Part shown: in pieces, positions 1,151 through 46,757 of the stretch | Layout: each line of letters begins with the position of its first letter | How positions within the stretch are numbered: the first letter of the stretch is position 1 | Source: an uncultured Saprospiraceae bacterium | GTDB lineage: Bacteria > Actinomycetota > Acidimicrobiia > Spongiisociales > UBA5794 | Reading direction: 5' to 3' | Length of the DNA stretch: 58,959 nucleotides | Assembly (NCBI GenBank): GCA_964195515.1 | Contig: CAXMQO010000036.1 | Span: 1 to 58,959 of the forward strand | The notes under the pieces: model-generated | The model's database searches: none | What the model was told of the DNA's origin: nothing | What the model saw: only the letters and a program-made list of their open reading frames with translations | Translations under genes and position numbers: made by a program

Positions 1151-1269
1151 TTCGTGGTGCCGGGTGTTCCGGCCTTCCACGGTGGATTTGGTCAGAGGCA
1201 GATCGCTAAGGTCGGCGTGCTCCCCTCGGAGCGCGCCATTGTCAATCAATCGAGACGACAGGGGACGAG

Positions 1270-1938: not shown

Positions 1939-1983
1939 ACGGGATATCGTCGAGTTCGGTCACCCGGAGTAGGAGGCGTGGAC

Positions 1984-3084: not shown

Positions 3085-3208
3085 GCGGCCCATTCCCCCA
3101 ACCACGCCGAACACCCGCGTCCACCACGGATCGCTCGGCCTTCCCGAAGTGAGTCCGGCGATTCGCTAGCCTCCCCGAGCAACTGCATCGCGGCAGGGCA
3201 AGGAGAGA

Positions 3209-4090: not shown

Positions 4091-4153
4091 GGCACCAGTT
4101 CAACCGACCCTGCGGTGGGTGGTGGGCGCTTGTTGCACCGCCGGAGGGGACGA

Positions 4154-5514: not shown

Positions 5515-5526
5515 TCAAACGATTGC
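5515..5526. promoter_or_regulatory. LacI-type operator TCAAACGATTGC
   Basis: Between divergent lhgO and the 5561 dehydrogenase; near-copy of the motif at 7053, 14078, 18788. Confidence 0.6.
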
Positions 5527-7052: not shown

Positions 7053-7064
7053 ACAATCGATTGC
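7053..7064. promoter_or_regulatory. LacI-type operator ACAATCGATTGC overlapping a TACAAT -10-like hexamer
   Basis: Between divergent osmC and lacI; TACAAT at 7052-7057 on + strand. Confidence 0.65.
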
Positions 7065-9025: not shown

Positions 9026-10069
9026 TCAATCCCAGTTGAGGAACGCAGGTAATCGATTCATCTTTCGAAGTGTCCCGACGACGCCGAGTGGGAAGAACAA
9101 CAGCACCGCGACCAGCATGGTGCCTTGAATCACGATGTTGAACTCAGTGGCGCCGAAGAAGACGAGCGATAGCTCATTGATGGCGTAGATGAGAACGGCG
9201 CCCACGACCGGCCCTGCAACCGTCCCCTTCCCTCCGATGATGGCCATCAACACCATTTGCGCCGAGATCGCAATGGTGAAGAACACCGTCGGCCGGATGA
9301 ACGCGATTGAGTAGCCGTAGATCGCGCCGGCGACGCCCACCCAGAAGGCACTCATCGCAAATGCGGAGATCTTGTAGAGGCGGGTGGGAACGCCTGCGAC
9401 CTCGGCCTTCACCTCGTCTTCGGCGATCGCGCGCAGACCCATGCCGAACTTCGAGTGGGCAACTCGATAGGCCGTCCAGACTGCCCCCATCGCAATGAGA
9501 AGCATCGCGTAGTAGAACGGCACACGGAGCCACTCTTGTGAGAGTTCCAGAGGGGGAAGCGGAAGCCCTGCGGCACCACCCAGATATTCGAAGTTGTCGG
9601 TCATGAGCAGGAACATGAACAGCAGCGCAATCGTCGAGATGATGAAGGCCGGGCCACGGGTGCGCAGTGTGATGAACCCTGCAAGGAAGCCGATTGCCAC
9701 TGCCACCAGACCGCCGAGGGGAGCGGTCAGGAATGGGCTGACGCCGTGGTAATAGAGCAAGACGCCTGCGACATACCCGCCGACTCCCATGAACACACTG
9801 TGACCGAGCGAGATGTAGCCGGCAAATCCGCCAAGGATGTTCCAACTCGAACTCATTGCCACCCACATCAGAACGAGGGCTCCGATGGTCAACACATAGT
9901 TATAGGAACTGATCATCGGCCGGAACAACGGCAACGCCAGCAGGGCTACGACCACCGCTGCCAGCACGTACCAGCGATAGCGCGCCGGCCCTGGCGGGCG
10001 CTGGACCTCCTTGTGTTCCGGTTCGGGGGCGGAACCGTCGGGACCTACGGCGGCGCGGTCTTCGATCAC
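9026..10069 (-). CDS. Branched-chain-amino-acid-type ABC permease (LivM-like)
   Basis: SWNILGGFAGYISLGH, GLRAIAEDE, GGKGTVAGP; GTG start overlaps upstream stop (GTGA). Confidence 0.9.
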   Translation of the reverse strand: MIEDRAAVGPDGSAPEPEHKEVQRPPGPARYRWYVLAAVVVALLALPLFRPMISSYNYVLTIGALVLMWVAMSSSWNILGGFAGYISLGHSVFMGVGGYVAGVLLYYHGVSPFLTAPLGGLVAVAIGFLAGFITLRTRGPAFIISTIALLFMFLLMTDNFEYLGGAAGLPLPPLELSQEWLRVPFYYAMLLIAMGAVWTAYRVAHSKFGMGLRAIAEDEVKAEVAGVPTRLYKISAFAMSAFWVGVAGAIYGYSIAFIRPTVFFTIAISAQMVLMAIIGGKGTVAGPVVGAVLIYAINELSLVFFGATEFNIVIQGTMLVAVLLFFPLGVVGTLRKMNRLPAFLNWD

Positions 10070-10965
10070 ACTGGGGCCTCCTTGCCGAACAGGCCTTGAG
10101 GCCGGACGAGCAGTATCAGGAATAGGGCCAGGTAGAAGGTCATGGGGCCCCACGTCGGCCCTATCTGGTCAACAACAAATGAACTGGCGACACCGAGAAC
10201 CAGGGCCCCGATGACAGCGCCCTTCATGCTTCCCATGCCGCCCAACACGACCAACGCCAACAGAACCGCAACCCACTGCCAGTGACGGAACGGGAAGAAC
10301 GGGAAGAGGTAGCTCATCAGCGCGCCGGAAGCGCCCGCGAGCGCCGTCGACAGACCAAAGGAGATAGCAGAAACCCTCCGGACGTTCACTCCGACGATCT
10401 GCGCGGCCGCGCGATTCTGCGTGGTCGCCCGGATGGCATACCCCGTGTGGCTGTATCTCAGGAATGCCCAGAGCCCGACCAGCAGCACGATGCTCATCAG
10501 GGATGCATAGAACTGGCCCTTCGGGATGAAGAGGATGTCGCCCTGGGGAAGGAACAGACCGTCGACGATGAACGACTCGTTGGCGTATCCCGGCTGCGCC
10601 TTTCGGTAGATCCCGGTGAAGACGAACCCCAGGAGACCTTCGACCATGATTGCGATCCCGAACGTGAGCAACACAGTCATCTCGCCGAACTTGGCCGAGC
10701 CTTCGATCCTCCGAAACAAGACCTGGTAGACGGCGACGCCGAAGAGGAACATGATCGGCATGACGAACACCACCGATAGCAGCGGATCGATGCCGAGCTT
10801 GTCGAACGCGAAGAACGATATGTAGGCAGAAGCAATGATGAACGCTGCATGGGCGAGGTTCACGATCCGCATGACGCCGAACGCCAACGTCAAACCAGCT
10901 GCCATCAGGGCGTAGACACCACCGAGCAGGAGTCCGAGGATCGCGACCTGGATCAGATTGGTCAT
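10066..10965 (-). CDS. Branched-chain-amino-acid-type ABC permease (LivH-like)
   Basis: GLTLAFGVMRIVNLAH, GYAIRAT, VVLGGMGS. Confidence 0.92.
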   Translation of the reverse strand: MTNLIQVAILGLLLGGVYALMAAGLTLAFGVMRIVNLAHAAFIIASAYISFFAFDKLGIDPLLSVVFVMPIMFLFGVAVYQVLFRRIEGSAKFGEMTVLLTFGIAIMVEGLLGFVFTGIYRKAQPGYANESFIVDGLFLPQGDILFIPKGQFYASLMSIVLLVGLWAFLRYSHTGYAIRATTQNRAAAQIVGVNVRRVSAISFGLSTALAGASGALMSYLFPFFPFRHWQWVAVLLALVVLGGMGSMKGAVIGALVLGVASSFVVDQIGPTWGPMTFYLALFLILLVRPQGLFGKEAPV

Positions 10966-11699
10966 TTCTTGTCTCCCGAACCCGCTGCTTTGCCGAGATA
11001 GAGTTCGCGAACACGGGGATCTCCGAGAATGCCGTCCGACGGCCCCTCAAAGCGGACGATGCCCAGATCGAGCACCACACCCCAGTCGGCGAGTTCGAGT
11101 CCGCGTTGTGCGTTCTGTTCAACGATCACCACGGTGAGGCCCATGCTCTTCAGCTGCTCGACCTGCGAGAAGATCTGCTGGGCAATCTGGGGCGCCAAAC
11201 CGAGAGTTGGTTCGTCGAGCATGAGCAGAATAGGATCGATCATGAGGGCGCGACCCATTGCCAGCATCTGCTGCTGACCGCCCGACATCTTGCCAGCGTC
11301 CTGGCCTGCTCGCTCCGAAAGGATGGGGAACATCTCGTACACCCGGGCGAGGCGCTCCTTGACGATGGCGCGATCCTTCACGAGGTAGGCACCCATGATC
11401 AGGTTCTCACGAACACTCATCTCAGGGAACAACGCCTGATCCTGAGGGACGAAACACACTCCGGCTGCCAGCACCTGGTCGGGTCTCCGGTGTGCCAGCG
11501 ACTCGCCCCGGAACACGACGTCACCGGATCGCGGATGAAGCAGCCCTGCAATCACCTTGAGTAGCGTTGACTTGCCTGCACCGTTCGGGCCGATGATGCA
11601 ATAAGATTTGGCCTCTTCGACTTCGAGCGAGAGGCCCTGGAGAATGTTGGGCCCTGATCCGTACCCAGCACTGACGTCGGTGACCTCGAGAATCGGCAT
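10962..11699 (-). CDS. ABC ATP-binding protein (LivF-like)
   Basis: GPNGAGKS, MSGGQQQ, LDEP. Confidence 0.93.
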   Translation of the reverse strand: MPILEVTDVSAGYGSGPNILQGLSLEVEEAKSYCIIGPNGAGKSTLLKVIAGLLHPRSGDVVFRGESLAHRRPDQVLAAGVCFVPQDQALFPEMSVRENLIMGAYLVKDRAIVKERLARVYEMFPILSERAGQDAGKMSGGQQQMLAMGRALMIDPILLMLDEPTLGLAPQIAQQIFSQVEQLKSMGLTVVIVEQNAQRGLELADWGVVLDLGIVRFEGPSDGILGDPRVRELYLGKAAGSGDKK

Positions 11700-11700
11700 G

Positions 11701-12438
11701 TCAAGCCATCCCTAGATAGGCATCGAGCACGCGGCCATCACTCTGCACCTCTTCCGGTGTCCCATGCGTGAGCACTTCGCCGTGGGCCATGACGATCACA
11801 GAATCACTGAGGTCCATGACGAGGTCCATGTTGTGCTCCACGATGAAGAATGTGAGACCCTCCGCGTTGAGCCGCCGGATCCGGTCGACCATGCGCTCCA
11901 GCAGCGCAGGATTCACGCCGCCCGCCGGCTCGTCGAGCATGACAAGTCGGGGATTCGACATAAGCACTGCAGAGAACTCCAGGAGTTTGCGCTGTCCGAA
12001 CGACAACAACTCCGCTTTTGAATAGGCGTACTGTTGGATACCGACGAACTCGAGGAGGCTGAGGGCTCGCTCGGTCTCGGTATCGAGCATTCGCGAACCG
12101 AAAGTGCCCCGGAGGTCTTGGGCAGAGGACCCGACCACCATGTTTTCGATCACCGTCATGTCGTCGAGGGCCCTGGTGACCTGAAACGTCCTCCCGATGC
12201 CGAGCCGGGTCAGCTTGTGCGGCATCTTCTTGGTGATCTCGGTGCCTTCGAACGTCACCGATCCGGAGTCGGCCCTGATCACGTTGTTGATGAGGTTGAA
12301 CGTGGTGGTCTTGCCGGCACCGTTCGGCCCGATAAGGGAAGTGATGGTTCCTTCCTCGATGTCGAAGCTGACATCGTTCACCGCTTGGATGCCGCCAAAT
12401 CCCTTGTTGAGGTTCCGGGCCTCGAGCATCAGGCCCAC
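11701..12438 (-). CDS. ABC ATP-binding protein (LivG-like)
   Basis: GPNGAGKT, LSFGQRK, LDEPAGG, VEHNM. Confidence 0.93.
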   Translation of the reverse strand: MGLMLEARNLNKGFGGIQAVNDVSFDIEEGTITSLIGPNGAGKTTTFNLINNVIRADSGSVTFEGTEITKKMPHKLTRLGIGRTFQVTRALDDMTVIENMVVGSSAQDLRGTFGSRMLDTETERALSLLEFVGIQQYAYSKAELLSFGQRKLLEFSAVLMSNPRLVMLDEPAGGVNPALLERMVDRIRRLNAEGLTFFIVEHNMDLVMDLSDSVIVMAHGEVLTHGTPEEVQSDGRVLDAYLGMA

Positions 12439-12532
12439 GATCGCCCTCCAACCGCCGTTCTGCGTCGAAATGCACTCACGAGTGCAACTCCCGCCTCTCG
12501 CTGATCTTCGCTACTGCGTGTTCATCTGGTCA

Positions 12533-12569
12533 GAAGGTGGGGCACCGACATCTGCGGTGCCCCACCTTC
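12533..12569. terminator. 15-bp perfect stem-loop downstream of the solute-binding protein gene
   Basis: GAAGGTGGGGCACCG-ACATCTG-CGGTGCCCCACCTTC; terminator or mRNA-stabilising hairpin. Confidence 0.7.
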
Positions 12570-12600
12570 GTTGTCTATCTGTTCAATCGTCGGTTGGGAA

Positions 12601-14004
12601 CTAAGGCCTCGGGTAGACGAGGTCCACCGTGCCCGGGAATTCACCAACCGGGTAGACGAACTTGAGTTCGTTGTCCTGCCACTGCACCATGATCATGGAG
12701 CGATCGATCGGCAGCCCTCGTTCATCCCATACCCATTCCCCGAGAATGGTCATGACCGGATCGGCCGACGTACGTGCGTGCATCCATTCCGACATCGCCA
12801 CATTGTCCGTCGAGCCGACACCGAGGATTGCCTGCTCTACGCCCTGGCAGAGCGAGAACGGGATCGCCTCGTCTTCATCCGGGGCCCGCCCGAACGATGC
12901 GGTGAAGCCGTCAATGAAGTCGGTGTTCGTGTAGACCTCACCACCGAGCACGCCTTCCCAATCGGCAAGCGGATGCCAGGCCGAGTGGATCGTGACGCCG
13001 TTGGCCAGATCTCCGAGCGTCTCTTCGAACTCGCTCTGTGCACCCTGTGACATCCAGATCAGCTTCGGGTTGTATTGCACCGTGGCGAATGCGTTGATCA
13101 GCGAAATCGCCTCATCCGGCGAAGCGGTCGCGGCAGCAACCATCTCGGCCCCGCTGTTCTTAATCGAGTTGGCCAACGTCAGCCAGTCGGTGAACGGAAC
13201 AGGCCACTGCTCCTGGTACACAACCTCGATGCCCGCCGGTTCGAGGTAGCCATCAACCGCCACGACCACATCCGAATCCGGGATCGCGACCTCGCCACCG
13301 ACCAGGCCTGTGACGATCGCGTTGGCGAAGAAGTCATCGGCGTGCACGATCGCCACCGTGCTGATCGCCGGATCGATGACACCGGTGCCGGTGTAGTACT
13401 CGATCATCGAGACAGGCGAGAAGCCGATCAGCTCGGCCGCGTTCTGCTGGAAGTAGAAGATGTTGTCGAATCCCCGCTCCCAAATACGCAGCGCAGCACC
13501 CGAAGGGATCGGATACATCATGCTGGCCTGGTTCGCCACGGTTGATGCCGGGAAGGTCAGCAAGCTCGAGAACGTGCCGAGCAACGCGTCTGCTCCCTCG
13601 ACCTCGATCTGGCGCTGAACCTGCGACACCGTGATCTCCGGATCGGACCGGTTGTCTTCGACGAGCAACTCGACCGGACGCCCGAGGATCCCACCCCGTG
13701 CGTTGATCTCATCGACGCAGAACTGATACCCATCGGCGTGTTTGCTGCCCGGAATGGCGAAGTCACCCGTGAGGGGCAACGACGCGGCGAACAGGATCGG
13801 ATCATCCGACATGGCGGCCGTGGTAGTGGTCTCCTCGGTCGCTGCTGCAGTTGTGGTGGTTTCTTCGGCTGCCGCTGCCGTTGTGGTGGTCTCCTCGCCA
13901 CCGGCTGCTGCTGTGGTGGTTGTGTCGTCACTGTCGCTGCTGCAGGAAGCCACAATGAGGGCAAACACCGCCAGCAGGGTCAAGAGTCTCGTGAATCGAA
14001 TCAT
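12601..14004 (-). CDS. ABC solute-binding lipoprotein (LivJ/PBP1 type) with Thr/Ala-rich linker
   Basis: Signal peptide with lipobox IVASC, repeated TTTTAAA linker, LPLTG, GGILGRPVELLVEDN; GGAGG upstream. Confidence 0.9.
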   Translation of the reverse strand: MIRFTRLLTLLAVFALIVASCSSDSDDTTTTAAAGGEETTTTAAAAEETTTTAAATEETTTTAAMSDDPILFAASLPLTGDFAIPGSKHADGYQFCVDEINARGGILGRPVELLVEDNRSDPEITVSQVQRQIEVEGADALLGTFSSLLTFPASTVANQASMMYPIPSGAALRIWERGFDNIFYFQQNAAELIGFSPVSMIEYYTGTGVIDPAISTVAIVHADDFFANAIVTGLVGGEVAIPDSDVVVAVDGYLEPAGIEVVYQEQWPVPFTDWLTLANSIKNSGAEMVAAATASPDEAISLINAFATVQYNPKLIWMSQGAQSEFEETLGDLANGVTIHSAWHPLADWEGVLGGEVYTNTDFIDGFTASFGRAPDEDEAIPFSLCQGVEQAILGVGSTDNVAMSEWMHARTSADPVMTILGEWVWDERGLPIDRSMIMVQWQDNELKFVYPVGEFPGTVDLVYPRP

Positions 14005-14077: not shown

Positions 14078-14089
14078 GCAAACGATTGC
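14078..14089. promoter_or_regulatory. LacI-type operator GCAAACGATTGC
   Basis: Between divergent SBP and flavin oxidoreductase genes; weaker half-copies nearby at about 14019 and 14062-14073. Confidence 0.7.
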
Positions 14090-14304: not shown

Positions 14305-15741
14305 ATGGCAGCCTCGCGGAGACGGTTCCCCCAAGTCAAGAAAATCGGAACGCCGGAGGCCATGCGCGCCTACTTGGCGGAGCAGGGCATCGACCTGCCA
14401 CTCGATACCGTCGTGGAGCCGGCACCCGAGGGACCACTCGCAACCCCGATCCGGATTGGCTCGCACCTCGAGGCCGAGAACCGGTTCGCGATCCTTCCGA
14501 TGGAGGGTTGGGATGGAACGACGGACGGGCTGCCGACACCGGATCTGGAGCGCCGCTGGCTGCGCTTCGGGGCTTCCGGAGCTGGCCTGGTGTGGGGCGA
14601 GGCCACCGCCGTTGCCCCGGAGGGCAGAGCAAACCCGAACCAGTTGATGATCAACGAAGAGACGGCGGAGTTCCTCGGCGACCTCCGAAGCCGGATGGTA
14701 GCCGCGCGGGCCCGCGAGTTCGATGGAGCGCACCTCGTCGCCGGTCTCCAACTCACCCACAGCGGTCGATGGTCTCGACCACTCGGTGAGCCGCTACCCC
14801 GTACCGCCTACCGGCAGCCTCAGCTCGACGAACGGCTTCCCGTATCCGATGCCTCGGTCTTGAGCGACGACGAACTCGACGAGCTGGTCGGCGTCTACGT
14901 CCGGGCCGGCATACTCGCCGCGGACGCCGGCTTTGATTTCGTGGACATCAAACACTGCCACGGCTATCTCCTCCACGAACTGCTGAGCGCCCGAACCAGG
15001 CCCGGTCGCTACGGCGGATCATTCGAAGGACGGACGAGGGTCTTGCGCTCCGTCGTGGAGCAATTGAGAGCACAGCGCCCGAACCTCACCATCGCGGTGC
15101 GGCTGAGCGCAGTGGATCCCGGACCGTACCTCGAAGACTCGGACGGAGTCGGGTACCCGGAACCGCTCGATCAGCCACCCTTCGTCTTCGGTCCCGACGA
15201 TCAAGGCAACCCCCTCGGGGAGACCCACCAGTTCCTCAATCTTTGTGCCGAGTTGGGGGTCGAACTCGTATGCGTCACGATTGGGAGCCCGTACTACAAC
15301 CCCCATGTGACCCGGCCCGCCTATCACCCCGCGCTCGACGGCTATCTCCCGCCGCGCGACCCGCTTGCCGAAGTCGCGTATCACCTCGAAACTACCGCCG
15401 CCCTGACGAGAGCTCACCCGGACCTCGTGCTGTTGGGTAGCGGCTACAGCTATCTGCAAGAGCTGCTCCCGAACGTCGCCCAATACCAGGTACGAACCGG
15501 GGGCGTTGGCATGGTCGGTGTGGGCAGAATGGCCCTCAGCTACCCACAACTGCCGGCGGATGTGCTCGCCGGGCACGCCATCGATCCGAAGATGATCTGT
15601 CGGACCTTCAGTGACTGCACCACCGGGCCTCGCATCGGTTTGGCCTCGGGTTGCTACCCGCTGGACGATCACTACAAGAAGAGCGAATCGCGCGTTACGA
15701 TCGCCGCCGCCAAGAAGGAGAAGCGATCGAAGTCCGGCTGA
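14305..15741 (+). CDS. NADH:flavin oxidoreductase (Old Yellow Enzyme-like)
   Basis: NRFAILPMEG, GLQLTHSGR, DIKHCHGYLLHELL, YGGSFEGR; C-terminal CRTFSDC...GC Cys cluster. Confidence 0.85.
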   Translation: MAASRRRFPQVKKIGTPEAMRAYLAEQGIDLPLDTVVEPAPEGPLATPIRIGSHLEAENRFAILPMEGWDGTTDGLPTPDLERRWLRFGASGAGLVWGEATAVAPEGRANPNQLMINEETAEFLGDLRSRMVAARAREFDGAHLVAGLQLTHSGRWSRPLGEPLPRTAYRQPQLDERLPVSDASVLSDDELDELVGVYVRAGILAADAGFDFVDIKHCHGYLLHELLSARTRPGRYGGSFEGRTRVLRSVVEQLRAQRPNLTIAVRLSAVDPGPYLEDSDGVGYPEPLDQPPFVFGPDDQGNPLGETHQFLNLCAELGVELVCVTIGSPYYNPHVTRPAYHPALDGYLPPRDPLAEVAYHLETTAALTRAHPDLVLLGSGYSYLQELLPNVAQYQVRTGGVGMVGVGRMALSYPQLPADVLAGHAIDPKMICRTFSDCTTGPRIGLASGCYPLDDHYKKSESRVTIAAAKKEKRSKSG

Positions 15742-15839
15742 CGTGGGGCTCGTCCGTTTCCCGCGTCGCCCTGCCGCCGTGCTAGCTTCGCACGAAGATG
15801 CAACATGGTGCAGTTGCTCACCGAGACTCGGAGCGCGTC

Positions 15840-17231
15840 TTGATCAAGATTGACCCCTCAATCGAACCGGCGTCACTCAACCCGGACCTGACCCGGCTGT
15901 GGGAAGTCTCCGGCCCCAAAGTCAAGCGACTGTGCCGCAGGAAGTCACCGGATCTCGCAACACCGGTGTACACGGTCGACGGTCGGTACACCGCACGCGG
16001 TTGGACCGAGTGGACCCAGGGTTTTCTCTACGGTGAAGCCATCCTGCAATTCGACGCTACCGGAGATGACGAAGCGCTCGAACTGGGTCGCCGTCTCACA
16101 CGCGATCACATGTCGCCGCATCTCACCCATGAAGGCGTGCACGACCACGGGTTCAACAACGTCAGCACCTACGGCAACCTCAGGAGACTGATGCTCGAGG
16201 GTCGAATCCCATTCGATGCCTGGGAGTTGGCGTTCTACGAGAACGCACTGCGAGTAAGCGGAGCGGTTCAGGCGATGCGTTGGACCGAGACCGCAGACGG
16301 CGGCGGTTTCATTCATTCGTTCAACGGTCCTCACTCACTCTTCTGCGACACGATGCGTTCGCTTCGATCCCTCATGTTGGCGCACCACCTCGGCCATTGC
16401 TTGCTCGGCGAGAACGACCGATCCATCTCTTTGCTCGAACGTGGCGTGCAACATGCCGCAACCACGGCCACCCACAACGTCTTCTACGGCGAAGGCCGCG
16501 ACGTGTACGACATTCGCGGACGGGTTGCCCACGAGTCGTTGTTCAACGTCACCGACGGCAACTACCGGGCGCCAAGCACGCAGCAGGGGTACTCGCCGTT
16601 CACCACGTGGACCCGCGGCCTGTCCTGGGTCATGTCCGGCTATGCCGAGCAACTCGAATTCCTCGAAACCATCGAGGATCTGGAACTCGAACCTCTCGGC
16701 GGGAGAGAGTCGGTCCGTTCGATGATGATCGCCGCGGCCACCGCCTCCTGCGACTTCTACATCGACCAGACGCCGCTCGACGGTGTGCCGTATTGGGATA
16801 CGGGCGCCCCGGGTCTGACATCGATGGGCAACTATCTCGACCGACCGGCCGAGCCACACAATGCCCACGAGCCGGTCGACAGTTCGGCTGCAGCCATCGC
16901 CTCGCAAGGGTTGCTCCGGCTCGGTCGCTACCTCACCGGCGCAGGAGATCCAGCCGGAGACCGCTACACCAGAGCGGGACTCACCGTCCTGCAGACCCTG
17001 CTCGGCGACGGGTACCTAAGTCTCGATCCGGATCATGAAGGCATCCTCCTCCACGGCGTCTACCACCGGCCCAACGGATGGGACCATGCTCCGAACGACA
17101 GCGGTGTCCCATCCGGCGAATCGGTGATGTGGGGCGACTACCACCTCATGGAGGCGGCCCTCTACGCCCAACGCCTCGCCGATGGCCTGCCGTATCTCAC
17201 CTTCTTTGGGCCGGTTGAGGATCTGCTATGA
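15840..17231 (+). CDS. Glycoside hydrolase family 88 (unsaturated glucuronyl hydrolase-like)
   Basis: EWTQGF, HDHGF, DTM, WTRGLSW, DSSAAAI, WGDY motifs of the (alpha/alpha)6 GH88 fold; TTG 15840 with GGAG (ATG 15798 alternative). Confidence 0.75.
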   Translation: MIKIDPSIEPASLNPDLTRLWEVSGPKVKRLCRRKSPDLATPVYTVDGRYTARGWTEWTQGFLYGEAILQFDATGDDEALELGRRLTRDHMSPHLTHEGVHDHGFNNVSTYGNLRRLMLEGRIPFDAWELAFYENALRVSGAVQAMRWTETADGGGFIHSFNGPHSLFCDTMRSLRSLMLAHHLGHCLLGENDRSISLLERGVQHAATTATHNVFYGEGRDVYDIRGRVAHESLFNVTDGNYRAPSTQQGYSPFTTWTRGLSWVMSGYAEQLEFLETIEDLELEPLGGRESVRSMMIAAATASCDFYIDQTPLDGVPYWDTGAPGLTSMGNYLDRPAEPHNAHEPVDSSAAAIASQGLLRLGRYLTGAGDPAGDRYTRAGLTVLQTLLGDGYLSLDPDHEGILLHGVYHRPNGWDHAPNDSGVPSGESVMWGDYHLMEAALYAQRLADGLPYLTFFGPVEDLL

Positions 17232-17998
17232 CGACACGCAGCGCACTCGTGACCGGCGGTTCCCGCGGCATCGGACTCGGTATCGCCGAAAGGCTCCTCA
17301 CCGACGGCTACCGGGTGGTGATCAACGGGGTTCGGGCCCCCGAAGCTGTAGCTGCGACGCTCGAAACGCTCTCACAATTGGGCGATATCACCTACGTCGC
17401 CGCCGATATTGGAACCGCAGACGGGCGAAGCCGACTGGTAACCGAGACGCTGGGGGTGGTCGGGCGCCTCGATGTGCTGGTCAACAACGCAGGGATCACC
17501 TCGCCGGGGCGCAAGGACATACTCGAAGCGACGGAGGCAGACCTCGACACCGTACTCGCCGTCAACCTCAAGGGTCCCTTCCTGCTCACACAGAGTCTGG
17601 CGCGGCACATGATCGAGAAGCGCAAGGCGGACCCGGCATTCCGCGGACGCGTCGTGAACATCACTTCGATCAGCGCCGCGGTCGCTTCGCCGAACCGAGC
17701 CGAATACTGCATCAGCAAGGCCGGCCTCTCCATGACGACGATGTTGTGGGCAACCCGCCTCGCCGAGTTCGGCATCGACGTCTTCGAGGTGCGTCCCGGC
17801 GTCATCCAGACGGACATGACCGCACCCGTTGCGGAGAAGTACGAATCTCTGATCAAGGCAGGACTCACACTCGATCGGCGACTTGGAATGCCGGAGGACG
17901 TTGCGGCGGTGGTTGCTGCGCTGGCCGCCGGGAACATTCCCTACTCCACAGGGCAGATCCTCACGGTCGACGGTGGATTGACGATCGCGCGGCTCTGA
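17228..17998 (+). CDS. Short-chain dehydrogenase/reductase
   Basis: TGGSRGIG, NNAG, YCISK; ATGA overlap with GH88 gene. Confidence 0.92.
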   Translation: MTTRSALVTGGSRGIGLGIAERLLTDGYRVVINGVRAPEAVAATLETLSQLGDITYVAADIGTADGRSRLVTETLGVVGRLDVLVNNAGITSPGRKDILEATEADLDTVLAVNLKGPFLLTQSLARHMIEKRKADPAFRGRVVNITSISAAVASPNRAEYCISKAGLSMTTMLWATRLAEFGIDVFEVRPGVIQTDMTAPVAEKYESLIKAGLTLDRRLGMPEDVAAVVAALAAGNIPYSTGQILTVDGGLTIARL

Positions 17999-18022: not shown

Positions 18023-18595
18023 TCAGTCGTCGGCGGAAGAGCCGGCTGCGAGGCCGGCGTCCGTATCAGCCAGTATCTCGCGGTGCCCGAGATCCAGCGT
18101 CTTGAGCCAGCGCTGCTGGCCGGACGTCAGCGCGATGAAGAACCCGAGCTCGGCCAGTTCAGGCGAAGTGAAGTGGGCGTGGAGGTCGTGCCACAGTGCG
18201 TCGTCTGCGAAGTCGGCGTTCCAGACGATCGCATCGGTGTAGCCCAGGGCAGCCTTCTCCCGTTCGCTGTACCTGGGGGAGGTTCGGAACTCCAGGAGAT
18301 CCGAGTAGTGGTCCTCCTCGACCGCGGCATCCTCTGAACGCTGCGCCGCGCAGTAGCCGCACTCGACCGTCTTCGTGACGTACACGCGGCAGAGTTCCTT
18401 GAGGTCGTGCTCCACGACGCCGTTGACAAACGTCTCTTCCCACGCCGCGGAGAAGGTCTTGACGACTGCCGGCACATGGGACCGAATCGCCTGAGACTCG
18501 GGCCGGGGCGTCCCGTTTCGGCGTGCTCGATCCAGAATCGCCAGGACTTCGGGATCCTCGATGGCGTTCAGATCCGGGTAGGGGATTCGCGGCAT
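18023..18595 (-). CDS. Carboxymuconolactone decarboxylase/AhpD-like protein
   Basis: LKELCRVYV...ECGYC (CxxC), SEREKAALGY, HFTSPELAEL. Confidence 0.8.
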   Translation of the reverse strand: MPRIPYPDLNAIEDPEVLAILDRARRNGTPRPESQAIRSHVPAVVKTFSAAWEETFVNGVVEHDLKELCRVYVTKTVECGYCAAQRSEDAAVEEDHYSDLLEFRTSPRYSEREKAALGYTDAIVWNADFADDALWHDLHAHFTSPELAELGFFIALTSGQQRWLKTLDLGHREILADTDAGLAAGSSADD

Positions 18596-18785: not shown

Positions 18786-19880
18786 ATGCAATCGATTGCG
18801 ACCGAGACAGCCCTCCCTGCCGGCATGGACGCCCTGGTCTTGCTTGGTCCAAACGAGTTCGAGGTACAGAGCGTCCCAGTGCCGGAGCCCGGTCGGCACG
18901 AGGTCCTGTGTGAGGTTCACTCCGTGGCAATCTGCGGCACCGACAAAGAGCTCATCTCGGGGAACTTCCTGAAGAAGGGCTGGCCGCGCGGATATCCGTA
19001 CACACCCGGCCACGAATGGTCCGGTGTCGTCATTGCCGCTGGTGAAGGATCAGCCGAGCTTGGCTTCCGGCCCGGCGACCGCGTGGCCGGGACCGCTCAC
19101 GACGGCTGCGGCAACTGCCGGATGTGTGCGATCGGCCGCTACAACCTCTGCGATAACTACGGGAACGAGGATCTCGGCCATCACCACTACGGCCACTACT
19201 CCACCGGTGCCATGCGCGAGTATCACAACACGTCGATCAAGAGCGTGTTCAAGATCCCGGGCTCCATGACGCTCGAACAGGCCGCATTGGTGGACGCCAG
19301 TTCGATCGCCCTACACGCCGTCAAGAGGGTCGGAGTGGGTCCCGGTGAAGTCGGGGCAATCATCGGTCCCGGCGCCCAGGGGCTACTGGCCGGCCAGATC
19401 GCAGGACTCCTCGGGGCAGCCCGGGTGATCCTTGTTGGAAGAGGTGACCGTCTCAAGACCGCGGCCGCGATGGGGTTCGAAGTGGTCGACAATTCGCAGG
19501 TAGACGGACCCGAGAGGGTGAGGGAACTCACCGATGGGAAGGGAGCCCATTTCACGATCGACACCGCAGCGCGCGGCAACACGCCGGCGGATGCGGTGGC
19601 CATGACGAGAAAGGGCGGACGCGTTGCCCTCATCGGTGTGCCGTTGGAGCCGTGCGTCCTGCCGCTGCAGCGGATCGTGTTCGAGGAGATGGACCTCTTT
19701 GGTGTACGGGCCAATCCGGGAACATGTGAGGAGGTCATTCCTCTCATCACAGAAGGCAAGCTGGACGTCGACGCCGTCACCACGCATACCTTCCCGCTGG
19801 CTGACTTCGCAGAGGCCTACGAGACCTTCACGCAACGCAAGGACGGAGCGATCAAGGTCCTGATCCAGCCCGGTGCCTGA
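18786..19880 (+). CDS. Zn-dependent medium-chain (polyol-type) dehydrogenase
   Basis: ICGTD, GHEWSG, CGNCRMC...C Zn sites, IGPGAQG; GAGGAG before ATG 18786. Confidence 0.9.
   Translation: MQSIATETALPAGMDALVLLGPNEFEVQSVPVPEPGRHEVLCEVHSVAICGTDKELISGNFLKKGWPRGYPYTPGHEWSGVVIAAGEGSAELGFRPGDRVAGTAHDGCGNCRMCAIGRYNLCDNYGNEDLGHHHYGHYSTGAMREYHNTSIKSVFKIPGSMTLEQAALVDASSIALHAVKRVGVGPGEVGAIIGPGAQGLLAGQIAGLLGAARVILVGRGDRLKTAAAMGFEVVDNSQVDGPERVRELTDGKGAHFTIDTAARGNTPADAVAMTRKGGRVALIGVPLEPCVLPLQRIVFEEMDLFGVRANPGTCEEVIPLITEGKLDVDAVTTHTFPLADFAEAYETFTQRKDGAIKVLIQPGA
18788..18799. promoter_or_regulatory. LacI-type operator GCAATCGATTGC overlapping the first codons of the dehydrogenase
   Basis: Perfect 12-bp palindrome matching the three intergenic copies. 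Confidence 0.55.
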
Positions 19881-19947
19881 TGAGAATCCACACGCCGGCA
19901 CCGGCACACGGAATCGGAAGACGACAAACGAGGAAGAGGAGGTAGGC

Positions 19948-20925
19948 ATGAGCAAATGGCAGATCCCGCCAGACGGCGGCCACATGGAGCGCCCGACGGG
20001 CATCTATCACCAGACGATGACGGGGAAGCAGATCGAGGACCGGCTCAAGGAGAACGACCTCATCATCATCCCAATCGGGAGCACCGAGGCCCATGGTCTG
20101 GCTCAGAATCCCGGTGAAGACACGTTCCTCGTCACCAGGCAGGCGGAGCAGGTGGCCCAGGCGACCGGTTGTACAGTGGCTGAACCTATCTGGTATGGGT
20201 CCCATCCCTTCCATCACCTCGGCATGCCCGGGAACATCGTCATCCCTGAAGAGACGTTCAACGCCTACCTGCGAGCGGTCATCGCGGGCTACTGGAATGC
20301 CGGATTCCGTAAGCAGATTCTGCTGAACGGGCACGGCCAGGACTACGTGATTCCTGCCGCAATGCACCAGTTCGGGAAGAAGTATCAGGTCCCCGCCATC
20401 CTGGTCAACGTCAACTGGTGGTTCGTGATCCCGGAGCACCTCCGCGACAAGGAACACGGTGGGCCGTTCGATACTGCGTTCATCCACGGCGACGAATGCG
20501 AAGCCTCATTCTCGATGGCGCTCTTCCCGGAGTTCATCGACATACAGCACGCCGAGAAGACGTCGTTCACACCCTTGCTGCCTCCCGGGCACATCAACAA
20601 GTCGGGTTCGGCGTTGCCGCTTTCCGAGGGACCGCTTCCGTTCTGGCAGCAGGTCGGCGGTTCTCCTCTCGAGGTAGTCGCAACCCCGGAGGGTTCGGTC
20701 GGCGACCCCACGCTGGCCGATCCGGAAAAGGCGAAGGGCGGGGTCAACGCGATCCTCGACTACTTGGAGCGATTGGTCAACGACATCATGGAGATGTACC
20801 CGCCGGGGGTGCTCCCTCCGATCGAACAGGTGAGCATGCGTCCTCGAGAGGATGTCGAAGCCGTACTCAAGGGCCCACGAGAGCCAGGAGGCCGTCACCT
20901 GTACACGTTCGCCTATCCGCCGTAA
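19948..20925 (+). CDS. iolN: 3-dehydro-scyllo-inosose hydrolase (creatininase family)
   Basis: MERPTGIYHQTMT, GSTEAHG...GEDTFLVTR, AGYWNAGFRKQILLNGHG, FIHGDECE; close to Thermotoga IolN as recalled. Confidence 0.8.
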   Translation: MSKWQIPPDGGHMERPTGIYHQTMTGKQIEDRLKENDLIIIPIGSTEAHGLAQNPGEDTFLVTRQAEQVAQATGCTVAEPIWYGSHPFHHLGMPGNIVIPEETFNAYLRAVIAGYWNAGFRKQILLNGHGQDYVIPAAMHQFGKKYQVPAILVNVNWWFVIPEHLRDKEHGGPFDTAFIHGDECEASFSMALFPEFIDIQHAEKTSFTPLLPPGHINKSGSALPLSEGPLPFWQQVGGSPLEVVATPEGSVGDPTLADPEKAKGGVNAILDYLERLVNDIMEMYPPGVLPPIEQVSMRPREDVEAVLKGPREPGGRHLYTFAYPP

Positions 20926-20970
20926 ACGCGGGCGACCGCACTGGAAGTCCGGAATGGGGGTTGATGTCTG

Positions 20971-21780
20971 ATGTTCAAGACAAGCATGGCCATCTCCCCC
21001 ACTCCGGCCGTTTTTGCCCCGTTGCTCTTCGCCGGTGACTGGACGTCGGCACTCGATGCCGCAGTTGACTTGGGATACGACGCGATCGAGATCAGCGTCC
21101 GCGATCCCGGAGACCCGGCGGTGGTGTCGTGTGATGATGGCCTGCGCCGACGCGGCCTTCAACTTTCAGCGATCGCCACGGGACAGTCGTTCTACTCGGA
21201 CGGATGGTCGCCGACCTCGGATGATCCCGCGGTGCGAGCGCTCCTCGATGTGCGTATGTACCGCATCATCGACCTCGCCGCCCCATGGGAGGCGATGGTC
21301 GTGATCGGGGGCGTACGTGGCACGCTGACCGGATCGGATCTCGAACATATCGACCAGTACCACCGGGCCGTGGACGCGGTTCGCCGGTATGCCGAATACG
21401 CGCTCGCACAGAATGTCTCACTTGTCATCGAACCGATCAACCGATACGAGACGAACTACATCAACACCATCGAGGAGGCGCTGCAGTTCATCGGCGACGT
21501 TGATCTCGACAACCTTGGAATCCTCGCCGACACCTTCCACATGAATATCGAGGAGGCGAACCTGGCCGAGTCGTTGCGATCGGCCGGCGAGCGTATCCAC
21601 CACGTGCAGTTCACGGATAGCAATCGCCTGGCGGCAGGCCGGGGCCACATCGACTTCCACGCCTTGGCGGCGGTGCTCAGGGAGTCCGGCTATCGCGGAT
21701 ACCTCTCCACTGAGACGCTGCCACTGCCGGACAGCCGGACCGCCGCCCAACAGGCGATCGAGTTGTTCCGCACGCTCTGA
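20971..21780 (+). CDS. iolO: 5-keto-L-gluconate epimerase-like (TIM-barrel sugar epimerase)
   Basis: EISVRDP, TGQSF, IEPINRYET, DTFHMNIEE, DSNR, ETLPLP; directly after iolN. Confidence 0.72.
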   Translation: MFKTSMAISPTPAVFAPLLFAGDWTSALDAAVDLGYDAIEISVRDPGDPAVVSCDDGLRRRGLQLSAIATGQSFYSDGWSPTSDDPAVRALLDVRMYRIIDLAAPWEAMVVIGGVRGTLTGSDLEHIDQYHRAVDAVRRYAEYALAQNVSLVIEPINRYETNYINTIEEALQFIGDVDLDNLGILADTFHMNIEEANLAESLRSAGERIHHVQFTDSNRLAAGRGHIDFHALAAVLRESGYRGYLSTETLPLPDSRTAAQQAIELFRTL

Positions 21781-21895
21781 ATTCAACCGTGCTCGGGATC
21801 CGTGACCCGACAACATCGAACGTCGCCTCCCGAGCCTCCGGTTGAACCACTATGGCTCGGCGATCACATTCAGCGCACCGTCGCGACGCTCCTGC

Positions 21896-21986
21896 CACCC
21901 GGCACAGGACCTCCCGGGGTCCAGGCGCCGGCTTGGGCACCTCCTCGATGCCGAACGTCGTTCGGGGCGGCGAACACTACGGCCTC
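21896..21986 (-). pseudogene. 5' remnant of a Zn-dependent dehydrogenase
   Basis: EAVVFAAPND / IEEVPKPAPGPREVLCRV across a 1-nt frameshift; no start codon; resembles the N-terminus of 18786-19880. Confidence 0.6.
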
Positions 21987-22002
21987 TGTGAATCGTCTCC
22001 GC

Positions 22003-22893
22003 TCAGAGCATCGCCAACGGATCGACCATCGAGCCTGTGGCCCCGCGGATCTTCAGCGGCAGCATTACGAAGAGGAACTCGTACACCCGGTCGCGAGCGA
22101 TCTCCTCGAGGTAGATGCTCTCGAGCAGGTAGATCCCGTTCTCGATCAGCAGCTTCGTGTGGACCGGCTGCGGGTTCGCAGGCGAACCACGATCCGGTGT
22201 CGGCATCACCTCGTAGGTCTCGGTATCGGTGCCGGTGGCGACCACACCTTTCTCCAGTAGCCATTCGGCCGCGGAGAGATCAGGGCCGGCCGTCTTGTGC
22301 TCGGCCATCGCCTCGGCGTCCGGCCAGTACTTGAGATACCCCGTGCGGATGAGCACGACATCCCACGGCCGAATCTCGACGCCCTGTGCCTCTGCAATGG
22401 CCTGCAACTCGTCCGCCCCGATGGGTTCACTCGACGGAAGGGCATCGATGCCGCGATAGGCAGGCGGATCCAGCAAGACACCGCGAGTGAAGAACGGCGG
22501 GAGGTGCGAGGCATCCCCGACGATCGGACCGTGGTCCGTAAGGTGCTCCGCGGTGTTGCCGCCTCCGTACCAGTGATTGTCGTCGCCAATGGTCATGTGG
22601 CCAAGGCCGTCGATGTGGGCGCCGGAGTGCGAACACGCCATCACGTACTCAGCCATATATCCGAGACCCACCTCGTTCGGCGGTCCCCACGGCTGAACCC
22701 CTCCGGCCTTGATGCCGGGAGGCGTCCGATAGTTGAGCACCTGGAACGGCGGATGGCCGGGGAAGAGCGGCATCCCGGTGAATCGAGGAACCGACAACGA
22801 GTAGGAGCGCCCCTCCTTCACCATCTGCGCTGCTTCAACAACCTTCTCTGCCGGCATGTCCCTCACGGGACCAACGTGTTGAATCTCGCTCAT
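22003..22893 (-). CDS. Cyclase family metal-dependent hydrolase (kynurenine formamidase-like)
   Basis: HSGAHIDGLGH, RGVLLD, LIRTG, GTDT, VHTKLL, ATGSMVDP; ATGA overlap with upstream gene. Confidence 0.87.
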   Translation of the reverse strand: MSEIQHVGPVRDMPAEKVVEAAQMVKEGRSYSLSVPRFTGMPLFPGHPPFQVLNYRTPPGIKAGGVQPWGPPNEVGLGYMAEYVMACSHSGAHIDGLGHMTIGDDNHWYGGGNTAEHLTDHGPIVGDASHLPPFFTRGVLLDPPAYRGIDALPSSEPIGADELQAIAEAQGVEIRPWDVVLIRTGYLKYWPDAEAMAEHKTAGPDLSAAEWLLEKGVVATGTDTETYEVMPTPDRGSPANPQPVHTKLLIENGIYLLESIYLEEIARDRVYEFLFVMLPLKIRGATGSMVDPLAML

Positions 22894-25142
22894 GTCTTCT
22901 GCTCCCTCATTGCTTCCCAAACTCGCTGCGGCGTCAACGGCAGATCTCGGATCACGAGACCGGTAGCGTCGCGCACTGCGGCGCCGACGGCCGGGGCAGT
23001 GCACAACAGGCTGCCTTCGCTGACACCTTTCACGCCGTAAGGCCCCGGTCCATCATGATTCTCGATACTGGCGCTGATCAACTCGGTCGGGAGATCCTTG
23101 CTCGTGGGAATGCGATAGTCGATGGCACCCAGGTTCCTGGTGCGTCCCTGCTCATCGAGGATGAGTCCTTCCATCAAGGAATGGCCGAGGCCCATAATCG
23201 CCGCACCGTCGTCCTGCCCCTGCACCTGCTGTGGGTTGAGCGCCGTTCCGACGTCGCCGACCGTTACGTGTTTGACGATCTCGATCTCACCCGTCTCGTC
23301 GTCGACCTCGGCTTCGATAGCCGTACAGTTGAACTCGAAGAACGCGGCATTCCCGGCGAGGGGGTGGCCGGGAACCTTGTCCTTCCGCATCTCCCCGTTG
23401 CCGATGACTTCTCCGCCGAGTGCACCGAGGCCTGCCGTGACCACATCAGTGATCGCCAACTCCTCGCCGGCCATACGTACGACCCCGCCATCCACTTCAA
23501 TTTCGGCTTCGTCGGTCTCATGGACCCGGGCGGCCATTGCCCTCACCTTGCCATGGATGTCTTTGCATGCTCGATAGACCGAGGTGCCCATAAGCACAGT
23601 CGATCGGCTTGCGGATGTCTGCTGGTCGTACGGCACCGTGGCCGTATCACCCATGATGACGTTGACGTTCTCGATCGGAATGCCCATCTCCTGGGCAACG
23701 ATCTGAGCGAACACGGTTCGGGCGCCTTGGCCCATGTCAGAGGTGCCGCAGAAGATGATCGCGCTGCCGTCGGCGAGGAGCCTCACCGTCGAGTACGACA
23801 AACCGGTCGTCGGACCCGACTTGATTCCGAAGGCGATACCTCGACCACGGCCTTCTGGCAGCGGTGTTCCCCAGCTGATCAACTCTGCGGCTTTGTCCGC
23901 CGTCTGGCGCCAATCCCCGTCGGCGGGCGTATCGCCCGGCACGAACTCAAAGCCCTTCTCCGGCAGGTTGCGCCGCCGGATCTCGAAACGATCGACGCCG
24001 AGGTCGAGGGCCGCCTCGTCCAGCGTCGACTCGCGGGCCCACGTGATTTGGGGGACGCCGAAACCGCGAAACGCCGTTGTCGGTGTGGTGTTCGAGAGAA
24101 TGGTCCTTCCGGCGATCTTCACCACTGGAACCCGGTACGGGCCGGCGGCCAGATACGACGACTTCTCAGCCACTCGATCTGCGATATCGACGTATGCCCC
24201 AATGAGGTAGTCCGTCGCGATGTCCTGGAAGACCATGTCACCATCGTTGGTGAGCCCCATCTTCACCCGAACCCGGGTCGACGGACGCCGGACGGCCTGG
24301 AAAGTCTCCTCGAGCGACATGATCAGCCGCACCGGCTTGCCGGTCTTCAGCGCCATATAACAAACCAGAGGTTCGAGCTTCGGATGCTGCTTGCCGCCGA
24401 AACCGCCACCTGGATCGGGAGCGAAGACCCGCATCTTGGAGAGCGGAATGTCGAGGAGATTTGCAAGCGTCTTCTGCAGTTGGAACGGGTGCTGGATCGT
24501 GCTCCAGACGTTCAGCCCATCGTCCACCGGTTCAGCGATGAAACCATGCGGCTCGATGGCAAAGTGGGTGATCATCGGAAACTCGTACTCCCGCTCGATC
24601 ACGTAGTCCGCGTCACCTTCGACCGCCGCAACGTCGCCCCAGCCGAAGTTGATCTCGGTCTTGATGTTGGTGTGCGCGAGTGGCTCGCCGGGTCGGAGCG
24701 ATGGATCTTGCACGAGCGGCGCATCGGGATCCAACGCGGCGTCGATCGTGTGGACCTCGGGCAGAACCTCATACTCGACGTGCACGAGATCGGCCGCCTC
24801 CTCGGCGGCCTCCTTCGTGTCGGCGGCCACGGCAGCAACCGGCTCTCCGTGGTAGTTGACGGTTCCCACAGCGAGGACCGGACGATCCTGATACTGGGGC
24901 CCGAATCGCGGCATCGGCTTGGGGAGATCGTCCGGGGTCAGAATCAAACGGACACCGGGGACCTGCTCTGCTTTGGTGGTGTCGATCGAGACGATCCGGG
25001 CGCGGGACTCATCGATCTTGACGAGCTTGGCGTGCAGCTCGCCCACAGAGTGAATGTCGGCGACGTACTCCTGGGCGCCGGTGACTCGGTCTCGGCCACC
25101 GACCCGATTCGGCGAGGAGCCGATGATCCCGTCGGAACTCAT
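22890..25142 (-). CDS. Xanthine dehydrogenase family molybdopterin-binding (large) subunit 1
   Basis: GGGFGGK, AFRGFG, DMGQG, TSASRST, GQDDG, KGVSE. Confidence 0.92.
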   Translation of the reverse strand: MSSDGIIGSSPNRVGGRDRVTGAQEYVADIHSVGELHAKLVKIDESRARIVSIDTTKAEQVPGVRLILTPDDLPKPMPRFGPQYQDRPVLAVGTVNYHGEPVAAVAADTKEAAEEAADLVHVEYEVLPEVHTIDAALDPDAPLVQDPSLRPGEPLAHTNIKTEINFGWGDVAAVEGDADYVIEREYEFPMITHFAIEPHGFIAEPVDDGLNVWSTIQHPFQLQKTLANLLDIPLSKMRVFAPDPGGGFGGKQHPKLEPLVCYMALKTGKPVRLIMSLEETFQAVRRPSTRVRVKMGLTNDGDMVFQDIATDYLIGAYVDIADRVAEKSSYLAAGPYRVPVVKIAGRTILSNTTPTTAFRGFGVPQITWARESTLDEAALDLGVDRFEIRRRNLPEKGFEFVPGDTPADGDWRQTADKAAELISWGTPLPEGRGRGIAFGIKSGPTTGLSYSTVRLLADGSAIIFCGTSDMGQGARTVFAQIVAQEMGIPIENVNVIMGDTATVPYDQQTSASRSTVLMGTSVYRACKDIHGKVRAMAARVHETDEAEIEVDGGVVRMAGEELAITDVVTAGLGALGGEVIGNGEMRKDKVPGHPLAGNAAFFEFNCTAIEAEVDDETGEIEIVKHVTVGDVGTALNPQQVQGQDDGAAIMGLGHSLMEGLILDEQGRTRNLGAIDYRIPTSKDLPTELISASIENHDGPGPYGVKGVSEGSLLCTAPAVGAAVRDATGLVIRDLPLTPQRVWEAMREQKT

Positions 25143-46713: not shown

Positions 46714-46757
46714 GAACCCACTCCTCCTCGACGGCAGACTCGGATGGTCTCAGTAGA

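Follow-up and report, generated by a model that had tools for sequence, protein, structure and literature searches.

Annotation pipelines everywhere label IolN '3-dehydro-scyllo-inosose hydrolase'; is its gene the mark of a single pathway, or do several routes of ring opening make use of it? The question arises at a locus on contig C36 (GenBank CAXMQO010000036.1), whose 58,959 nucleotides, analysed at full length, are termed the window hereafter. The contig belongs to a 2.14-Mb metagenome-assembled genome (132 contigs, 83.5% complete, 1.03% contaminated) whose nearest relatives in a scan of genome contigs are uncultured Acidimicrobiia. On the forward strand of the window, three co-directional genes (18786-21780) encode in this order a zinc-containing medium-chain dehydrogenase/reductase (MDR), IolN and an IolO-like epimerase. 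They had been predicted, from a reading of the DNA itself, to represent a variant of the inositol route of Thermotoga maritima, the intermediates of which are listed in PMC5931981, with a different dehydrogenase in the place of IolM. Our analysis describes a real but modest variant of that route, conserved among relatives and defined by a predicted regulon, in which the dehydrogenase is non-orthologous and the classical first and last steps are missing. IolN and IolO themselves are already named by standard databases; the answer also bears on the nutrition of the Acidimicrobiia that abound in soil and freshwater, as far as it runs through IolN.

Gene models and family matches agreed on the succession of MDR dehydrogenase, iolN and iolO, and on the presence of kdgK-like and eda genes in the same region (Table 1). 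The MDR start codon is preceded by GAGGAG at a spacing of 6 nt, the intergenic gaps measure 67 nt (MDR-IolN) and 45 nt (IolN-IolO-like), and a sequence scan detected no terminator-like site between the three genes. IolN, present as a single copy in the assembly, is a strong member of its family and scored 504.7 bits over profile positions 1-307 of the NCBIfam equivalog model NF041098 (cut-off 245), a model that stood in for a comparison with TM0413. Alignment A1 shows no variation at its residues E47, H49, D58, H129, H180 and E185, which are predicted metal-binding residues of the creatininase fold. The IolO-like protein matched the 5-keto-L-gluconate epimerase model NF041099 best, with 264.3 bits against a cut-off of 300. 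Since none of the 43 IolN-linked IolO-like proteins reaches about 300 bits, those of true IolG/IolM clusters included, this cut-off discriminates poorly and the sub-threshold score says little. Its closest solved relative is TM0416 (PDB 2zvr; 190 bits, E 3.5e-55, 41% identity over 256 positions), the next entry scoring 105 bits. The catalytic and metal motifs EP-NRYET, DTFHMNIEE, DSNR and S-E are kept across the 43 homologues, and E154, D187, H190, E194 and E248 are invariant in alignment A2. The original prediction was right about IolN as a family member and about IolO as the closest match to TM0416.

IolN has 1174 relatives at E <= 1e-20 (69-93% identical among the 120 listed), and the genome-contig scan yielded 587 IolN loci, of which the best 80 (L002-L081) were surveyed by calling and clustering open reading frames and typing the MDRs. 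Type A loci (9/80, mostly Spirochaetes) carry a true IolM (536.7 bits) and a true IolG (453.3 bits) together with IolO and a second MDR. Three of them, L039, L044 and L047, arranged as IolG-IolN-IolO-IolM plus the second MDR, resemble the window in their co-directional clusters, in IolN (70-72% identical) and in the IolO-like protein (34-40% identical), and differ from it in these true IolM and IolG partners and in their sugar ABC importers. In type B (31/80; Chloroflexota, other Actinomycetota and Bacillota) an MDR of 385-400 aa that scores 140-165 bits on the IolM model (cut-off 450) lies directly downstream of IolN, usually accompanied by a GntR regulator, a sugar ABC importer, IolO and a transaldolase (TAL)/FSA-like gene, and also by DUF6282 and extra TIM barrels. 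Type C is that of the window: an MDR 73-95% identical to ours stands directly upstream of IolN in all nine Acidimicrobiia loci (L002-L010), and with a 41%-identical relative found in one Spirochaete locus, an MDR lies beside IolN in 10/10 type C loci. The IolN tree places the window within a fully supported clade of ten type C members. In a further group (11/80; Thermoflexales and Anaerolineae) there is no MDR, and IolN is accompanied by an Ldh_2 gene and an aldehyde:ferredoxin-oxidoreductase-like gene. The IolN proteins of L068-L079, 62% identical to that of the window, form a subclade with full support; besides genes of these two kinds, three small genes lie with them, and neither an MDR nor IolO is present. 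An MDR adjoining IolN is thus the most conserved feature across cluster types, yet the true IolM and IolG partners of the Thermotoga paradigm accompany IolN in only 9 of the 80 closest loci. In the remainder its redox partners are of three or more other kinds and the exits vary as well, one name covering several cluster types. Because most IolN loci lack a true IolM, the different dehydrogenase of the window is less exceptional than it had looked; what the window offers is a clean, regulon-defined case whose dehydrogenase was supplied by an unrelated lineage and which lacks the downstream steps of the classical route.

Hidden Markov model scores, PDB ranking, phylogeny and the cofactor motif all indicate that this dehydrogenase is not an IolM orthologue. 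It scored 174.4 bits on the IolM model NF041097 (scyllo-inosose 3-dehydrogenase, cut-off 450), barely above its own threonine dehydrogenase score of 154.6 bits, the true IolM of L039 reaching 536.7 bits. IolM profile positions 1-38 found no match, in agreement with the earlier remark that the long IolM-type N-terminus is missing. Its best PDB match is sorbitol dehydrogenase (139 bits), with an NADP(H)-dependent ketose reductase also among the best; entry 3ip1, presumably the TM0412 structure, ranks 45th with 75 bits. The catalytic Cys/His/Glu and the structural 4-Cys zinc site are intact in the alignment. The cofactor loop reads VGRG throughout the window MDR lineage, whereas the corresponding site is acidic in types A, B and D (FET, LDT, IDP); the loop without acidic residue suggests an NADP(H)-type cofactor, so that the enzyme probably uses NADP rather than NAD. 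In the MDR tree, the branches that carry true IolM and type B are about 3.2 substitutions per site long and the window MDR does not group with IolM. No type A (IolM) or type B MDR was found elsewhere in the 83.5%-complete assembly. The claim of a different dehydrogenase in the IolM slot is borne out: the MDR did not turn out to be a plain IolM with the remaining genes elsewhere, nor did the IolN and IolO assignments fail.

The same tree indicates where the dehydrogenase may have come from. Its IolN-linked clade (99 in the Shimodaira-Hasegawa-like approximate likelihood ratio test, SH-aLRT) is nested within proteins linked to the 'cyclase' family (96-98), the nested placement having support of 96-99 overall. 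Homologues at least 72% identical to the window MDR are all from Acidimicrobiia where named, and the next group (52-66% identical) is from Dehalococcoidia, Chloroflexi or Gemmataceae where named. All four inspected members of the latter group (L085-L088) are the first MDR of a 'cyclase (PF04199)-MDR-MDR' cassette adjoining an importer. One member of the 'cyclase' family, the dihydrophloroglucinol cyclohydrolase of Clostridium scatologenes, has been proven to hydrolyse a cyclic 1,3-dione by retro-Claisen cleavage (PMC10470551). Since the outgroup MDRs adjoin this family, the window MDR lineage appears, by analogy, to partner habitually with ring-opening metal hydrolases and to have been joined to IolN instead in the Acidimicrobiia. 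The cassettes and the Clostridium system thus share with the window a redox enzyme placed beside a metal hydrolase able to open a cyclic 1,3-dione. They differ in that the cassette hydrolase has the cyclase fold and that of the window the creatininase fold, and in that the phloroglucinol pathway uses a short-chain dehydrogenase/reductase (SDR) as its reductase (PMC10470551) and the window an MDR. The cassettes are themselves candidate ring-opening systems for a cyclic dione: their cyclase (253 aa) and MDR genes lie beside Opp-type or NMT1-type importers, accompanied in L088 by HpaB, UbiD and a VOC protein and in L087 by 2-oxoacid dehydrogenase E1/E2. A cyclase gene of the window itself (22003-23004) was rejected as MDR partner, being only 24-31% identical to the cassette cyclases over partial stretches, and was assigned to a neighbouring Mo-hydroxylase cluster. 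In the close relative L002 (11895-13952, reverse strand) the cyclase gene of that cluster is followed by one more MDR, a paralogue with 47% identity to the window MDR, at a place where the window has no gene (21780-22003).

The affinities of the MDR leave room for another role, that of a UxaB-like ketose reductase acting after IolN and IolO and reducing, with NADPH, the 5-keto group of tagaturonate or 5-keto-L-gluconate, the diketone then being made by the SDR, by an old yellow enzyme (OYE)-like protein encoded upstream or by an IolG-like paralogue. Its best PDB relatives and its VGRG loop would fit such a role, which would also fill the missing UxaB step. Two relatives speak against it. In L007 (8901-12620) and L008 (4052-7912) the operon reads MDR-IolN-class II aldolase (PF00596, 194 aa)-PfkB, so that the MDR is kept beside IolN while IolO gives way to an aldolase and a kinase for which the keto group is required. 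With no step left for a keto-reductase after IolN, the MDR should act before it. Furthermore, MDR-IolN adjacency is the feature most conserved in all cluster types, the outgroup MDRs partner a hydrolase and not a sugar-acid pathway, and altronate dehydratase would still be missing. We therefore consider the reductase role quite unlikely; the L007/L008 operon, the MDR-IolN adjacency and the hydrolase-partnered outgroup would favour an IolM-like role.

The family memberships, the conserved synteny and the shared operator described below are matters of observation. That MDR, IolN and IolO-like together form an oxidise-hydrolyse-epimerise module that opens an inosose-like six-carbon ring is the reading we prefer, at about even odds, the catalytic steps, the substrate and the exit being deduced from sequence. 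In the first step of this scheme, equivalent to that of IolM and catalyzed by a non-orthologous, probably NADP-linked enzyme, the MDR would oxidise the ring hydroxyl next-but-one to the existing ketone and yield a cyclic 1,3-diketone. IolN would then hydrolyse a C-C bond (retro-Claisen) to give a 5-keto-aldonate of the 5-keto-L-gluconate type, and the IolO-like enzyme would invert the carbon beside the ketone, leading to a tagaturonate-type product. A LacI repressor binding GCAAWCGWTTGC would shut off the MDR operon, an amino-acid-type ABC importer and an operon encoding the OYE-like protein, a glycoside hydrolase family 88 (GH88)-like protein and the SDR. The product would leave through the GH88-like protein, the SDR, the PfkB kinase and the Eda aldolase, via a 2-keto-3-deoxy acid to pyruvate and not via UxaB/UxaA.

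The regulatory part of this scheme draws on a LacI-type operator that is palindromic with a central CG, repeated at the promoters of several operons and kept in relatives. Perfect copies of GCAAWCGWTTGC occur only twice in the assembly, both within the window, one overlapping the MDR start codon and the other in the promoter region from which the importer and OYE-like operons diverge (Table 1). One-mismatch sites precede the LacI gene (7053-7064) and lie at 5515-5526, and all four sites are in promoter regions. Operator location is kept in L002, L006, L009 and L010: it again covers the MDR start in the first two and stands just upstream of MDR in the last two, where a LacI orthologue directly precedes MDR. 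Because the operator is shared and its positions are kept in relatives, the importer, the OYE-like/GH88-like/SDR operon and MDR-IolN-IolO are predicted to form one LacI regulon. A small YciW/AhpD-like gene between the OYE-like and MDR operons is present in six related loci. It lies between SDR and MDR in five of them, whereas in L007 it adjoins the LacI block, some 9 kb upstream of MDR.

Table 1. Predicted genes and LacI-type operators of the window that bear on the MDR-IolN-IolO locus.
Feature	Position	Strand	Basis or remark
eda, KHG/KDPG aldolase	1270-1938	+	NF005499, 307.2 bits (cut-off 275)
PfkB kinase, KDG-kinase-like, below equivalog cut-offs	1978-3084	+	51% identical to the L089 PfkB that precedes GH88-like-SDR-aldolase
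L-2-hydroxyglutarate oxidase gene, divergent from the following gene	4154-about 5443	-	LacI site 5515-5526 between the two
beta-hydroxyacid dehydrogenase, tartronate-semialdehyde-reductase-like	5579-6496	+	75%-identical orthologue beside LacI in L094
LacI-family repressor, start approximate	7185-8216	+	one-mismatch operator upstream
Liv/HAAT-type ABC importer: two permeases, two ATPases, Peripla_BP_6 binding protein (12601-14004)	9026-14004	-	Pfam
Perfect LacI-type palindrome GCAAACGATTGC, divergent promoter of the importer and OYE-like operons	14078-14089		motif search
OYE-like flavoprotein (14305-15741), GH88-like (15798-17231) and SDR (17228-17998), one co-regulated operon	14305-17998	+	Pfam/NCBIfam and operator
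Small YciW/AhpD-like gene between the OYE-like and MDR operons	18023-18595	-	weak NF053654 match, no Pfam match
Type C MDR zinc dehydrogenase, 364 aa, 'IolM slot'	18786-19880	+	Pfam ADH_N and ADH_zinc_N
Perfect LacI-type operator copy GCAATCGATTGC, across the start codon of the MDR gene	18788-18799		motif search
IolN, 3-dehydro-scyllo-inosose hydrolase family, creatininase fold, 325 aa	19948-20925	+	Pfam Creatininase; NF041098
IolO-like ketose/5-keto-aldonate epimerase, xylose-isomerase-like TIM barrel, 269 aa	20971-21780	+	Pfam AP_endonuc_2; NF041099 best family

As to the steps flanking this module, iolG, uxaA and uxaB are indeed not among the window genes, as had been noted, and E. coli UxaA, UxaB, UxaC, UxuA and UxuB gave no tblastn match at E <= 1e-3 in the 83.5%-complete assembly (UxaE was not searched), so that the absence of the Ashwell-type genes extends beyond the window. 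When the assembly was searched by tblastn with IolG proteins from the fetched loci, two IolG-like genes were found, both below the TIGR04380 cut-off of 355 bits. The first, on contig C97 (516-1505, 273.3 bits), is part of a region (516-3796) where it adjoins another Gfo/Idh/MocA gene, an aldehyde dehydrogenase and an HpcH-type aldolase. The second, on contig C60 (2555-3424, 229.9 bits), is a Gfo/Idh/MocA gene accompanied by a LacI paralogue and a hydroxypyruvate-isomerase-like TIM barrel (1351-4409). These two regions may supply inosose. The locus could also be the plain Thermotoga myo-inositol pathway, IolG, IolM and UxaE/UxuB/UxuA being hidden in the 16.5% of the genome that the assembly lacks, and the MDR would then be an unrelated neighbour; the incompleteness of an assembly in 132 contigs and the IolG-like genes on C97 and C60 would allow this. 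We regard it as very unlikely, since the MDR-IolN pair and the operator are kept in nine other assemblies, some of the relatives' contigs are 0.36-0.87 Mb long with no IolM within 10 kb, and the MDR start codon lies inside the operator controlling the operon. What held of the original inference of a variant pathway is the non-orthologous dehydrogenase and the lack of Ashwell-type genes in the assembly, whereas another cyclitol as substrate and an SDR filling the gap left by IolG stay conjectural.

How would the product of IolO then be consumed? The 2-keto-3-deoxygluconate (KDG) kinase and 2-keto-3-deoxy-6-phosphogluconate (KDPG) aldolase that a Thermotoga-type route requires both have candidates about 16 kb upstream of the MDR operon, eda passing its cut-off and PfkB being KDG-kinase-like. 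This pair is a candidate pathway exit whose tie to the pathway is indirect, no LacI operator being found near it. The link would pass through the GH88-like gene, for which at least 8000 candidate homologues match at E <= 1e-10 (63-91% identical among the 120 listed). Together with the following SDR it recurs as a pair across phyla (56-64% identical), with a PF01081 (Eda-type) aldolase directly after: LacI-PfkB-GH88-like-SDR-Eda in L089, GH88-like-SDR-Eda in L090 and, in L094, a LacI-TauE-Liv importer block followed by GH88-like-SDR-Eda with neither the OYE-like gene nor IolN. No lyase or sugar importer accompanies the pair in these three loci. From this recurrence we infer that the GH88-like protein, SDR, PfkB and Eda could form a funnel to a 2-keto-3-deoxy acid and pyruvate, which might stand in for UxaB/UxaA in handling the product of IolO. 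The SDR was also considered as a phloroglucinol-reductase-like or KduD-like enzyme, and this was abandoned as a PDB search gave only structural-genomics SDRs and FabG-type enzymes.

Relatives may use other exits. The L007/L008 operon points to a route in which the keto-acid formed on ring opening is phosphorylated and then split by an aldolase into dihydroxyacetone phosphate and a C3 semialdehyde. The alternative exits of type C hint that C3 units arise from the keto-acid by aldol cleavage, a tartronate-semialdehyde-reductase-like gene lying close by. Two such genes lie close to the operon in L007, and L003 and L004 carry a TAL/FSA-like gene. For the genome of the window an aldol exit was rejected, as neither the TAL/FSA-like protein nor the class II aldolase plus PfkB has a close homologue in the assembly; both are an idea for the relatives only.

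Several observations weigh against the ring-opening module and exit proposed above. The L094 block, syntenic with the left half of the window at 56-75% identity, works without IolN, and co-regulation therefore need not mean one linear pathway. No GH88 enzyme is known to dehydrate a keto-aldonate. The importer is of the amino-acid/carboxylate type, whereas other IolN loci carry sugar-type importers. IolG is missing from both the window and the LacI regulon, the IolG-like genes of the assembly are sub-threshold, and the absences rest on an assembly 83.5% complete. The VGRG loop and the sorbitol dehydrogenase kinship of the MDR would also suit a reductase. Lastly, four positions that do not vary among 59 other IolN proteins are replaced in the IolN clade of the window (A53Q, T96N, T186A and Y223L, the last together with a small insertion); T186A adjoins a predicted metal ligand and these replacements could reflect a different substrate.

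Some of these points bear on the substrate more than on the chemistry. An inosose-type substrate is favoured by the 70% identity that IolN shares with its counterparts in true inositol clusters, while the importer type, the lack of IolG in the regulon and the four IolN replacements seem to speak against plain inositol. The same chemistry might thus act on a charged carbocycle or conjugate brought in by the amino-acid-type ABC system, such as a deoxy-, carboxy- or amino-cyclitol or a uronosyl-inositol, from which the OYE-like, GH88-like and SDR enzymes would make a hydroxy-ketone ring that MDR and IolN then open. Besides the HAAT-type importer and the missing IolG, this would account for the operator common to the MDR and OYE/GH88/SDR operons, for the confinement of the OYE-like gene to loci that also hold MDR-IolN (it is absent from L094), and for the IolN clade having lost two hydroxyl-bearing residues (T186A, Y223L) and gained amide side chains (A53Q, T96N). 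We nevertheless hold it to be rather improbable: IolN has kept its 70% identity to the proteins of true IolG/IolM clusters, MDR-IolN occurs without OYE/GH88/SDR in L004, L005, L007 and L008, and shikimate or quinate, to which only the Shikimate_DH gene of L094 had pointed, was discarded because that gene scores as an ordinary AroE. We would likewise call it unlikely that IolN and the IolO-like enzyme were recruited, together with a 'cyclase-MDR-MDR' cassette dehydrogenase, into a LacI regulon that handles a charged non-inositol substrate, which would amount to an undescribed hydrolytic route. The conserved core of such a regulon would be the amino-acid-type importer, a GH88-like hydratase and the SDR; the ring-opening module would then act on a carbocycle with a deoxy, carboxy or amino substitution, or on the inositol moiety of a uronosyl-inositol, with the GH88-like protein and the SDR replacing the reductase and dehydratase steps to KDG.

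The locus can be set against known systems. The T. maritima genes TM0411-TM0416 are reportedly assigned to IolG, IolM, IolN and IolO. The window resembles that operon in an IolN that passes the equivalog model, an IolO-like protein closest to TM0416, a zinc MDR adjoining IolN and nearby KDG-kinase-like and Eda genes. It departs from it in an MDR that is not IolM (174 versus 450 bits, separate clade, no N-terminal extension, no acidic NAD residue), in a cluster without IolG, in the lack of any UxuAB or UxaAB match in the assembly, in an importer of amino-acid rather than sugar type, in its LacI regulator and in the co-regulated OYE-like and GH88-like genes. A literature search for IolN, IolM and IolO variants returned nothing relevant beyond PMC5931981 and PMC12632266. 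The latter describes LguG of Luteolibacter LG18, a C-4 epimerase that converts 5-keto-L-gluconate to D-tagaturonate, the reaction proposed here for IolO. The L-glucose/L-galactose pathway of LguG goes on via tagaturonate reductase and altronate dehydratase (PMC12632266), which are absent here.

Finally, the window encodes at 45199-46749 on the reverse strand a CoA-acylating methylmalonate/malonate-semialdehyde dehydrogenase of the IolA type (TIGR01722, 569 bits), an 88%-identical orthologue of which adjoins IolO, LacI and the TAL/FSA-like gene in L003.

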